A DNA stretch of 64,000 nt. Source: Escherichia coli. Its GTDB lineage: Bacteria > Pseudomonadota > Gammaproteobacteria > Enterobacterales > Enterobacteriaceae. The notes below the pieces were generated by a model that worked only from the letters and a program-made list of their open reading frames with translations, was not told the DNA's origin and searched no databases. The stretch lies in assembly GCF_041886205.1 (NCBI RefSeq), contig NZ_CP169029.1. The stretch is one strand, 5' to 3'. The position numbers and the translations under genes were made by a program. Positions 29,885 to 30,619 of this stretch are shown here, one piece after another; within the stretch, counting starts at the first letter, position 1, and each line of letters opens with the position of its first letter.

Positions 29885-30619
29885 TATTTGTCCTTAAACC
29901 ATAAATAATTAAATTTTAATCGCCGGAAAACCTCAAATTAATAGTGAAGTGATCGGCTTAGAGATGACCATCGAATATGCGTCATTGCTTCCCGCAAAAG
30001 TGTGCATAAGATGATATTCTTTGGTGTGCGGCGATAGTGGGAGTTTTGGGCGATGAATTCAAATTAGTTTTACTAAAAATAATCTTAAGTAAAACTTAAA
30101 ATATCACGAAGGGCAATGTTTTTTGAGGAATTCCTTATGAATACAGAACGGAGTTATTGCATAACGGTTAAATTCATATGGGCCACATTACAAATGTGGG
30201 CAATAAGAAAGCAACAACAAAAAAGTGCGTTTTCTGGTTTTTTCAGCGGTTAATTAATGAAAGGTAATATATAATATATATCAAGACACAACTCCTTTTA
30301 AATTTTATTTGCGTGTGTCTATTGTTACAGGCTCCTCTAATAAATGTCAGTGCATTCCTTAAATAACCCTCCGCCACACGATATGTCATTCCCGGAAAAA
30401 CCCGCCATTCATATAAATATGAAATATAAACCCACAAAATAATGATACTATCAATGAGTTGCATCCAGTGTTTACCTGGCTTTATCATTAGTCTGAGGCG
30501 GTTTTTTACTGCCCCCAGAGCGAGGGATAACAGAGTTGCTACCGGAGTACTGACCGATTCATGCAAAATCGGCCAGTATTATCAAGAAATTATCGTCTGT
30601 TTTTAAGTCTGGAGATAAG

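Follow-up and report, generated by a model that had tools for sequence, protein, structure and literature searches.

A second, defective Yfc-type fimbrial operon in Escherichia coli and its probable AT-rich promoter and leader region

In the window (the entire 64-kb stretch of Escherichia coli DNA analysed here), a long spacer separates the start codon of a gene for a fimbrial major subunit from the stop codon of yoaB, both of these genes lying on the minus strand. This raises the question of what 735 bp of apparently empty DNA do at the head of a fimbrial operon, and whether they conceal a regulator gene or a switch. Taken together, our observations make it probable that the spacer is the non-coding promoter and leader of a second, defective Yfc-type chaperone-usher operon, that it contains neither a regulator nor a switch, and that it is most likely an H-NS-silenced promoter island with transcription starting at one of two candidate promoters, P1 or P2 (see Table 1 for the coordinates of all features).

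Origin, composition and decay of the locus

The GC fraction of the spacer is 0.359 (35.9%) as against 0.498 (49.8%) across the window, and just 1% of the 735-bp windows in the 64 kb have a lower value. Thus, the earlier note was right to describe an AT-rich region of 735 bp upstream of a fimbrial major subunit; what it did not see is that the spacer is a composite derived from a paralogous cassette, that it holds conserved promoter and leader elements, and that the operon behind it has a pseudogenised usher. A long AT-rich upstream spacer is a trait of this family, with a length of 560–735 bp and a GC fraction of 0.27–0.34, whether the neighbour is sixA, sspB or yoaB. The PGAP annotation of the orthologous spacers is empty in 8 of 10 loci and consists of IS1 alone in the other two. 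A terminator scan of the spacer found none, and an Rfam scan of positions 29000–31500 at E <= 1 returned nothing relevant to it, the sole match being a sub-threshold one to NsiR1 (22 bits against a gathering score of 39) in the intergenic spacer between the usher and the major subunit.

Gene order and the RefSeq annotation of orthologous loci identify the operon as yfcV-usher-chaperone-yfcRQPO, headed by a yfcV-type gene with the spacer directly upstream of it. The island consists of only these seven fimbrial genes, with yoaC, yoaB and yoaA as neighbours. In amino acid sequence the 188-aa major subunit is 75% identical to YfcV of K-12 and 95% identical to the protein of OW1E2; its best NCBIfam match is StfA, below the cut-off. 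The operon is part of a cassette of 7.1 kb (7.1–7.3 kb across the genomes with a yoaC-yoaB copy), which is a duplicated or transferred copy whose nucleotide sequence agrees to 96% with the yfc allele that OW1E2 carries at its smrB/sixA locus, and to 77% with K-12 yfc. Sequence comparisons indicate that in the host lineage this second yfc cassette, a paralogue of yfcOPQRSTUV, was placed in the yoaC-yoaB spacer, a site that it occupies in 10 of 5426 complete E. coli genomes (a rare lineage) and for which the empty form was identified.

As a consequence of this insertion, the spacer is made up of three parts (572 + 47 + 116 bp). The 572 bp proximal to the operon moved along with it and share 94% identity with the DNA that precedes yfcV at the canonical sixA locus (93.9% over 558 bp for the proximal 558–572 bp against OW1E2). 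Next comes a junction filler, and the distal part is native DNA that matches unoccupied sites in 2020CK-00188 (window positions 30504–30583, 83%) and in UPEC 536 (from about 30553). A hairpin, CTGACCGATTCATGCAAAATCGGCCAG, lies at 30550–30576 within this native yoaB flank, and its stem shows compensatory differences between strains in the alignment. The yoaB gene itself is found with 98–100% nucleotide identity in 5424 of the 5426 E. coli genomes. BLAST searches with the spacer against the same genomes gave matches in only 15, the K-12 counterpart being too diverged for BLAST and aligned directly instead, and a YfcV-alignment search of genome contigs recovered only five loci, two of them at contig ends. 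Among the closest known relatives is the canonical-locus yfc allele (for example in OW1E2, PT62 and wlxctx60), in which the proximal 558–572 bp are 92–98% identical and the operon 96% identical, but the distal end joins the sixA flank rather than the 47-bp filler and the yoaB flank.

Table 1. Features of the yoaB-proximal fimbrial locus, in window coordinates
Feature	Position	Strand	Remarks
Yfc-type cassette	23363..30456	-	yfcO-to-yfcV-like genes, flanked by about 60 bp at the 3' end and by 572 bp upstream
Usher gene, pseudogene	26591..29236	-	premature stop at codon 56, TAG at 29071-29069
YfcV-like major fimbrial subunit gene	29318..29884	-	188 aa
AT-rich spacer	29885..30619		735 bp, non-coding, between fimbrial major-subunit gene and yoaB
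Translation-initiation block TTTAATTATTTATGGTTTAAGGACAAATA	29885..29919	-	directly before ATG; Shine-Dalgarno AAGGA 29895-29891
Conserved inverted repeat	29968..30024	-	5' arm CCAAAGAATAT 30024 to 30014; 3' arm ATATTCGATGG 29978 to 29968
Candidate promoter P1	30034..30062	-	-35 TTGAAT 30062 to 30057, 17-bp spacer, -10 CACTAT 30039 to 30034
A/T-rich conserved block TTAGTAAAACTAAT	30063..30076	-	directly upstream of P1 -35
45-codon ORF, spurious	30116..30253	+	ATG at 30116; about 38 codons from ATG at 30138
107-codon ORF, spurious	30243..30566	-	TTG start
Distal conserved block	30264..30301	-	GTCTTGA at 30287 to 30281, then TATATATT...
Junction filler	30457..30503		47 bp; absent from canonical yfc locus and from unoccupied yoaC-yoaB spacers
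Native yoaC-yoaB spacer DNA (yoaB 3' flank)	30504..30619		116 bp; matches unoccupied sites
yoaB, RidA-family protein	30620..30964	-	upstream neighbour; annotation-based

The operon is defective in the host genome because the usher carries a nonsense codon: TAG stands at codon 56, where the relatives have CAG, and the alignment to the NCBIfam usher model begins only at profile position 145. Most yoaB-locus copies in sister strains likewise contain frameshifts, truncations or IS1, and the spacer region is broken by IS1 in 5 of 10 of them, with three independent entries into the spacer. The pseudogenised usher and these IS1 insertions render a present function in the host genome doubtful. Accordingly, the spacer could be functionless relic DNA in this genome, with promoter elements that were inherited and are no longer selected; this is also consistent with its diversity, which is about that of the adjacent coding sequence. 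We regard this as possible but not probable: the conserved blocks described below remain intact in the window allele, and the least variable segments of the spacer are precisely the blocks conserved between alleles. Moreover, gene conversion with the canonical locus of the same lineage exchanges sequence between the two and keeps the yoaB-locus copy similar; for instance, the sixA-locus copy of wlxctx60 is 100% identical to the window copy in the major-subunit gene and 98.4% identical in the spacer. The loss of selection would in any case concern the present state of the locus rather than its mechanism, and is compatible with the spacer being the promoter and leader of a Yfc-type operon.

Conserved promoter and leader elements

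Several blocks of the spacer are common to the window, K-12 and 13 other alleles. Among 12 close copies, no segment of the spacer varies less than the translation-initiation block. In 15 alleles with proteins only 59–98% identical, this block is nearly unchanged, and its last 14 nt ahead of the ATG are essentially the same throughout. Farther upstream lies the candidate promoter P1, with a predicted start at the A at 30027 that would yield a 143-nt leader. About 30 distinct upstream variants preserve its layout, TTGnnn-17(16-18)-(C/T)AnnAT-9..11-CCAAAGAAT, even though the sequence of the spacer between its two elements is unrelated between allele classes. The P1 PWM score is 6.9; its -10 element is weak (3/6 matches), and it lies under the threshold of the promoter scan. 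The conserved A/T-rich block that adjoins its -35 element could be an UP-element or an activator site. The distal conserved block contains P2 (TTAAAA-17-TATATT, with the -10 at 30278 to 30273, 389 nt upstream of the ATG), which with a score of 10.2 is the best sigma-70 match in the spacer. In K-12 the predicted yfcV promoter TTGAAA-17-TATAGT, which is SELEX-associated (PMC3946193), occupies the same distance, at -384.

Counted with a PWM proxy (the definition of promoter islands originally used PlatProm), promoter-like sites in the spacer reach 19 per 500 bp, where the mean is 4.3 and no part of the 64 kb has a higher density. The promoter scan gave 5 sites and dinucleotide shuffles 3.5 +/- 1.8, which is no enrichment, so that this density is a consequence of the AT-richness and not an independent signal. 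Productive transcription would probably start at the conserved weak sigma-70 promoter P1, near 30027, or at the distal P2. The leader of a P1 transcript would have the conserved inverted repeat at its beginning and the invariant ribosome-binding block at its end.

The arms of this inverted repeat are invariant in 12–20 distinct alleles, or differ by wobble-compatible transitions only, while the inner segment ranges from 25 to 44 nt and varies in sequence too. This raises an alternative in which the main conserved function is post-transcriptional: right at its 5' end the P1 transcript would carry a CCAnnGAAUA/UAUUCnnUGG stem-loop, which would either stabilise the mRNA or form a protein- or CsrA-type platform controlling translation from the AAGGA motif. 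The unconstrained minimum-energy fold uses the arms in 11 of 12 alleles, the one-sided arm changes are all G-U-compatible on the sense strand, and a GGA motif can be read in the inner segment of many alleles. With the predicted P1 start, the stem would also lie 3 nt from the 5' end. Stem-loops that stabilise enterobacterial mRNAs from their 5' end are known, for example in the 5' UTR of ompA; should P1 be the promoter, the two would have in common a conserved stem about 3 nt from the 5' end and a long leader, but the structure predicted for the window is without statistical support.

The structural measures speak against this alternative. Covariation in the inverted repeat was not detected statistically, with measures not above shuffles and 5 of the 9 pairs never varying. 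Its alifold energy is just -3.5 kcal/mol. The element has fold z-scores of about -1 (-0.1 to -2.3), and the whole leader one of about -1.3; moreover, the minimum-energy fold of the window's own allele takes a different register, and the stem-loop matches no Rfam family. A metagenome pattern scan for the leader recovered 104 stretches with 20 distinct repeat variants, which added no covariation power; all of them lie upstream of MSKF... yfcV-type genes, and none was found beyond Escherichia/Pseudocitrobacter-like sequences. The conservation of the arms would equally fit a DNA or protein recognition site. We hence consider a chiefly post-transcriptional role unlikely, and favour the reading of the spacer as a promoter and leader region. 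As a speculation that goes beyond this reading, the Yfc-family operons might share an undescribed cis-module, comprising a weak sigma-70 promoter with a fixed 17-bp spacer, the invariant inverted repeat next to it (as the 5' stem-loop of a leader of about 140 nt, or as the operator pair of an unknown regulator) and the AAGGA block, which after relief of H-NS silencing would determine mRNA stability or translation.

Small open reading frames and switch features

The earlier note had pointed to a 107-codon minus-strand ORF and a plus-strand ORF of roughly 38 codons, and had recognised a regulator in neither. Both ORFs are present, the latter within a 45-codon frame, and their comparison across genomes indicates that neither is a gene. 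The 107-codon ORF is open only through a run of A4 instead of A5 near 30436–30439 in this genome: VE-T9 has it in pieces of 70 + 52 aa and OW1E2 in pieces of 42 + 31 aa, and K-12 does not have it. In VE-T9, ET201 and OW1E2 a 1-bp indel near 30195 leaves only 29 aa of the 45-codon ORF, which K-12 likewise lacks. It is thus highly improbable that the spacer encodes a small regulator, either a co-directional 107-aa one like papB or a divergent 45-aa one like papI. The longer ORF is mildly unusual for DNA of such composition (it exceeds 97% of the shuffles in length, an ORF of at least 107 codons being reached in 2.6% of 2000 dinucleotide shuffles), and we take its orientation and size to resemble those of PapB-type regulators; but in each close relative examined both ORFs are interrupted by 1-bp indels that shift the frame, and other alleles do not have them. 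Further, the 107-codon ORF runs over both cassette junctions (30456 and 30503), from the native yoaB flank into cassette DNA. Pfam and NCBIfam searches with both ORFs gave no family match, the best Pfam i-Evalue being 0.2, to an unrelated DUF, and neither ORF is called in the RefSeq annotation of the 10 genomes.

Fimbrial operons commonly phase-vary, and a perfect 9-bp inverted repeat (29881–29889/30437–30445) flanks 547 bp of this region, which would be in line with an invertible promoter like fimS; a Dam/Lrp methylation switch like that of pap or std is the other conceivable form. By our estimate, chance alone would give about two such 9-mers in DNA this AT-rich, and one arm lies over the start codon. 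More generally, the long-range inverted repeats of the spacer (9–22 nt) are AT-rich or imperfect, with one arm of each in the start codon or in yoaB. A recombinase gene was sought in the island and its neighbours and not found, and 22 copies in 13 genomes are all collinear, as single pieces or interrupted by IS1 alone, with none in inverted orientation. These results bear out the earlier note, which had found no inverted repeats bracketing a fim-like switch. Like fimS of type 1 fimbriae, the region is an AT-rich fimbrial control region with a promoter and a (here predicted) role of H-NS; it differs from fimS in having neither flanking repeats of quality, nor a recombinase gene, nor inverted copies. 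A fimS-type invertible switch is thus rejected, there being no bracketing repeats beyond chance level, no tyrosine recombinase gene nearby and a single orientation among the 13 genomes.

The pap and std regions share with the window a long upstream control region, and the models nearest to the usher and chaperone of the window are those of Stf, Ste and Std, a grouping known as the pi clade. In contrast to those regions, the spacer has no papI/papB-like genes, no spaced GATC pair and no conserved GATC. Its lone GATC (29951) is missing in ET201 and OW1E2, and across 16 alleles no GATC position is conserved, with counts at or below expectation and no pap-like pair. A pap-type Dam/Lrp region is likewise rejected, as there is no GATC pair about 100 bp apart and no gene of the papI/papB type. 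Hence, a phase-variation switch of either form has next to no chance of being the function of the spacer.

H-NS silencing and implications

The proposal of the earlier note that the region is a candidate H-NS-silenced promoter gains indirect support from the AT-richness, the density of promoter-like sites, the homology to yfcV-upstream DNA and the H-NS data for K-12. Panyukov & Ozoline 2013 list the K-12 yfcV/sixA spacer as promoter island 2453647_489, and it is H-NS-bound in the Kahramanoglou and Oshima ChIP data (PMC3661553). It also carries an RpoD-holoenzyme SELEX peak, flagged HNS, in a 'constitutive promoter' spacer (Shimada et al. 2014; PMC3946193). The K-12 yfcV upstream region binds RNA polymerase yet is transcriptionally poor (PMC3661553, PMC3946193). 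The yfc operon is one of the K-12 chaperone-usher operons that show poor expression in laboratory conditions (PMC6805351, citing Korea et al. 2010). The cryptic chaperone-usher fimbriae of commensal E. coli are described as repressed by H-NS, and yfc is called cryptic (PMC3559732, citing Korea et al. 2010) and is classed as a core-associated but cryptic fimbrial type (PMC3559732).

The K-12 yfcV-sixA region resembles the spacer in its place upstream of a yfcV-type major subunit, its AT-richness and its length (680 bp versus 735 bp here), and it has the translation-initiation block, the inverted repeat, the P1 layout and the distal promoter-like block at equal distances. It differs in being another allele (the proximal 245 bp are about 62% identical, the rest essentially unalignable) at another locus (sixA versus yoaB), and the binding of H-NS and RNA polymerase is known for K-12 only. 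What links the K-12 data to the spacer is hence its position, its composition and the short conserved blocks, since farther upstream of the ATG than about 250 bp the two sequences can barely be aligned. The high-affinity H-NS motif is only weakly enriched in the spacer, with three sites at up to 2 mismatches. The association of promoter islands with horizontally acquired or mobile DNA is seen here too, in the rarity of the cassette and its known empty site. We infer that the spacer would act like its K-12 counterpart, as an AT-rich promoter island with RNA polymerase at many overlapping promoter-like sites. H-NS would coat and silence it, and such coating would leave the operon cryptic unless the silencing is relieved or an activator acts.

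The region is an ordinary fimbrial control region and matters little beyond annotation, where its value lies in keeping two ORFs from being mis-called as genes: the "empty" 735 bp hold no hidden gene. In uropathogenic E. coli, yfcV serves as a marker. The regulation of Yfc is poorly known, and the conserved promoter, the inverted repeat and the leader blocks offer concrete targets for promoter mapping. Finally, the locus is a small example of fimbrial operon turnover, with a second yfc copy, gene conversion, repeated IS1 insertion and pseudogenisation.

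Structure and distribution of the spacer

The spacer exactly fills the gap between two minus-strand genes, coding for the major fimbrial subunit and a RidA-family protein. At 0.359, its GC content is below the window-wide 0.498, with lower values in only 1% of all 735-bp windows of the 64 kb; both small ORFs are present, confirming the earlier note's description of an AT-rich region with two such frames. The neighboring yoaB, yoaA, tsaB, yeaY and fadD show 98-100% identity to E. coli genes. Of 5426 complete E. coli genomes, just 13-15 contain the 735-bp sequence. In 10 genomes it adjoins yoaB and precedes a chaperone-usher operon of seven genes, the last of them coding for a StfH/YfcO-family adhesin. 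In 12 genomes, 9 of them the same strains as in the yoaB-locus set, its first 558-572 bp are found at the canonical yfc locus between smrB and sixA, where they precede the major-subunit gene of the yfc operon. The window operon is 96% identical to the canonical-locus allele of strain OW1E2 and 77% to K-12 yfcOPQRSTUV, its major subunit being 75% identical to K-12 YfcV.

The yoaC-yoaB spacer of ordinary E. coli, the empty site, is only 261-421 bp long. Comparison with such sites places the insertion at about 23168-30503, with the yfc-homologous module at about 23363-30456; these limits make the spacer a composite of three pieces (see table). About 195 bp (23168-23362) and 47 bp (30457-30503) bordering the module have no match at the empty yoaC-yoaB site or at the canonical yfc locus; they may have been left by the vehicle of the insertion or by its donor context. 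At the yfcO-like adhesin gene (23435-24298, minus), nucleotide identity to the allele of OW1E2 falls to 68-70% in the part around 23321-23800, far below the 96% seen elsewhere in the operon, which suggests that the adhesin has been diversified or replaced. On the opposite side, the insertion lies just past a hairpin, CTGACCGATTCATGCAAAATCGGCCAG, which lies 44-70 nt beyond the yoaB stop and is common to all yoaB flanks. Its stem shows compensatory differences between strains (CTGACCGA/TCGGTCAG versus CTGGTCG/CGACCAG) and is followed by no U-run; it may serve as a terminator, a stabilizer or a REP-like element.

Features of the spacer and its surroundings
Feature	Position	Strand	Details
Usher gene	26591-29236	minus	premature TAG at codon 56 (29071-29069); CAG in relatives
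Major fimbrial subunit gene	29318-29884	minus	188 aa; one border of spacer
Yfc-type upstream DNA	29885-30456		572 bp; moved along with operon
Junction filler	30457-30503		47 bp
Native yoaB 3' flank	30504-30619		116 bp; includes hairpin 30550-30576
RidA-family gene (yoaB)	30620-30964	minus	114 aa; other border of spacer
ORF, 107 codons	30243-30566	minus	TTG start
ORF, 45 codons	from 30116	plus	about 38 codons from ATG at 30138
Translation-initiation block	35 nt before ATG		conserved; last 14 nt (TTTAAGGACAAATA) essentially invariant
Inverted repeat	30024->30014, 29978->29968		CCAAAGAATAT, ATATTCGATGG; inner segment variable, 25-44 nt
P1, sigma-70-like candidate	30062->30057, 30039->30034		TTGAAT, 17 bp, CACTAT; directly upstream of inverted repeat
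P2, distal block (candidate)	about -420 to -350		GTCTTGA...TATATATT; TTAAAA-17-TATATT, -10 ends at 30273, 389 nt upstream of ATG
IS1 event	30353-30361		LHM10-1, CP52E; 9-bp target duplication (CATTCCTTA)
IS1 event	abuts 29898		PT62, LP5-1
IS1 event	abuts 29949		XJ5.2

The 107-codon ORF is slightly long for its composition (a length reached by 2.6% of dinucleotide shuffles). It starts in the native yoaB flank, crosses the filler with both junctions and ends within the cassette, as no ancestral gene could, and owes its existence to one A fewer near 30436-30439 in the window genome: it is broken into 70 and 52 codons in VE-T9 and ET201 and into fragments of merely 42 and 31 codons in OW1E2, with nothing comparable in K-12. 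The plus-strand ORF is shortened to 29 codons in VE-T9, ET201 and OW1E2 by a 1-bp indel near 30195. HMM searches of Pfam and NCBIfam found no match for either frame, and the PGAP annotation of the spacer in ten RefSeq genomes holds nothing but IS1. The indels, the junction crossing of the longer frame and the lack of family matches or annotation rule out both as genes, and the view that neither is a known regulator is thus borne out.

Conserved islands in the upstream region

We compared the upstream regions of other alleles, with major-subunit identities of 59-91%, drawn from Escherichia coli, E. albertii, E. whittamii, unclassified Escherichia, Shigella, Pseudocitrobacter, a Citrobacter StfA locus and metagenomes. 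In every case 560-735 bp of 27-34% GC precedes the major-subunit gene, whichever the neighbor (sixA, sspB or yoaB); hence, such a long AT-rich spacer characterizes the operon type. Between allele classes it is mostly unalignable, with four conserved islands: the translation-initiation block, the inverted repeat and the candidate promoters P1 and P2. P1, preceded by a conserved A/T block, follows the pattern TTGnnn-17-(C/T)AnnAT; about 30 distinct variants retain its hexamers and their spacing of 17 bp (in rare cases 16 or 18), despite unrelated sequence between the hexamers in different allele classes. From P1, transcription would start at A 30027 and give a 143-nt leader, with the inverted repeat beginning at leader nt 4. 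P2 contains the spacer's best match to sigma-70; its K-12 counterpart, TTGAAA-17-TATAGT, predicted from an RpoD SELEX peak, ends 384 nt upstream of yfcV (PMC3946193), as compared with 389 nt in the window. Both predicted sites may be used as promoters. At -23 to -15 relative to the major-subunit ATG, a two-codon mini-ORF (ATG GTT TAA; 29899-29907, minus) overlaps that gene's ribosome-binding site. It is probably dispensable, since its ATG is kept in about 9 of 15 alleles and the rest have ATA or AGA instead.

Judging from the alleles compared, the inverted repeat is a genuinely conserved one, with candidate roles. It may form an RNA stem at the leader's 5' end, as the free minimum-energy fold pairs these arms in 11 of 12 alleles and the one-sided substitutions in them are all wobble-compatible on the sense strand; however, 5 of the 9 pairs are invariant with covariation no higher than in shuffles, the consensus fold energy is -3.5 kcal/mol, the fold z-scores lie near -1 (element) and at -1.2 to -1.3 (whole leader), the window's own allele favors a different register and no Rfam family matches. 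Alternatively, the repeat may act downstream of the start as a DNA or protein site.

The search for recombinase target repeats found, as inverted repeats bracketing a sizeable segment, only AT-rich or imperfect ones of 9-22 nt, each with one arm in the start codon or yoaB, in agreement with the earlier note, which had seen no fim-like switch. As the island also has no recombinase gene and all 22 copies (13 genomes) are collinear, fim-type inversion is rejected. So is pap- or std-type Dam/Lrp control, because the single GATC of the spacer (29951) is missing from ET201 and OW1E2, and across 16 alleles GATC frequency is at or below chance with no conserved positions.

Promoter density and probable H-NS silencing

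By promoter prediction, promoter-like sites are densest within the 64 kb at 29883-30382 (19 per 500 bp versus a mean of 4.3; genome-wide background), yet their count is not enriched over dinucleotide shuffles, and the density reflects AT-richness. In K-12 the yfcV(-)/sixA(-) region (2453647_489) is one of the 78 "promoter islands" of Panyukov and Ozoline, which bind RNA polymerase, yield almost no full-length RNA, go with acquired genes and are H-NS-bound, the H-NS evidence for this island being the ChIP data of Kahramanoglou and Oshima (PMC3661553). Shimada et al. reported an RpoD-holoenzyme SELEX peak in the same K-12 spacer and flagged it as H-NS-binding (PMC3946193). The chaperone-usher operons of K-12, including yfc, are reportedly poorly expressed under laboratory conditions (PMC6805351, citing Korea et al. 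2010), and the cryptic chaperone-usher fimbriae of commensal E. coli have been characterized as H-NS-repressed and yfc as cryptic (PMC3559732, citing Korea et al. 2010). Transcripts of yfcV rise upon overproduction of TosR or BolA (PMC5956150, PMC4337573).

The window spacer resembles the K-12 island in position, composition and conserved blocks, and by this homology it is most likely a promoter and leader region of this kind, silenced by H-NS; for the window allele, H-NS binding and the start sites are inferred. The hedged interpretation of the earlier note, a candidate H-NS-silenced promoter, is supported.

GC is lowest in the window (0.31) at 52471-53946 (minus), a yeaI-like gene that codes for a 491-aa GGDEF-domain protein and has DgcJ-type and yeaH-like genes on its two sides; the list of H-NS-bound promoter islands likewise includes K-12 yeaI (PMC3661553). 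Further low-GC segments (0.35-0.38) lie at about 8415-9880 and 11307-12300, near rlmA, mntP and yobD-like genes, and the K-12 yobD/mntP spacer is another listed island (PMC3661553).

Operon decay, IS1 insertion and exchange between loci

The nonsense codon in the usher gene makes the window's Yfc-like operon defective and probably non-functional, though its control region is intact. Other yoaB loci carry a frameshifted yfcR-like gene (ET201), a truncated usher (MB53) or a frameshifted usher (LHM10-1). Canonical-locus ushers are also often pseudogenes; usher pseudogenes include K-12 yfcU and, in sister strains, several at the canonical and yoaB loci. IS1 lies inside the 735-bp spacer in half of the genomes with the yoaB locus (5/10), through three independent events (sister copies L021, L134 and L135); those at 29898 and 29949 adjoin the proximal leader, and the fimbrial genes appear to have been lost there. 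These insertions mark the AT-rich spacer as a hot spot for IS1.

Over 29318-30456, the copy that strain wlxctx60 carries at the sixA locus (L129) shows 100% identity to the window in the major-subunit gene and 98.4% in the spacer, the window copy being nearer to it than to most yoaB-locus copies; in LHM10-1, one protein accession is encoded at both yfc loci. This closeness and the shared accession indicate that the two paralogous loci still exchange sequence by gene conversion. The spacer is a Yfc-type fimbrial control region, presumably an H-NS target, at an unusual locus. Its sole possibly new element is a conserved promoter, inverted-repeat and leader module of the Yfc family, with a putative function.
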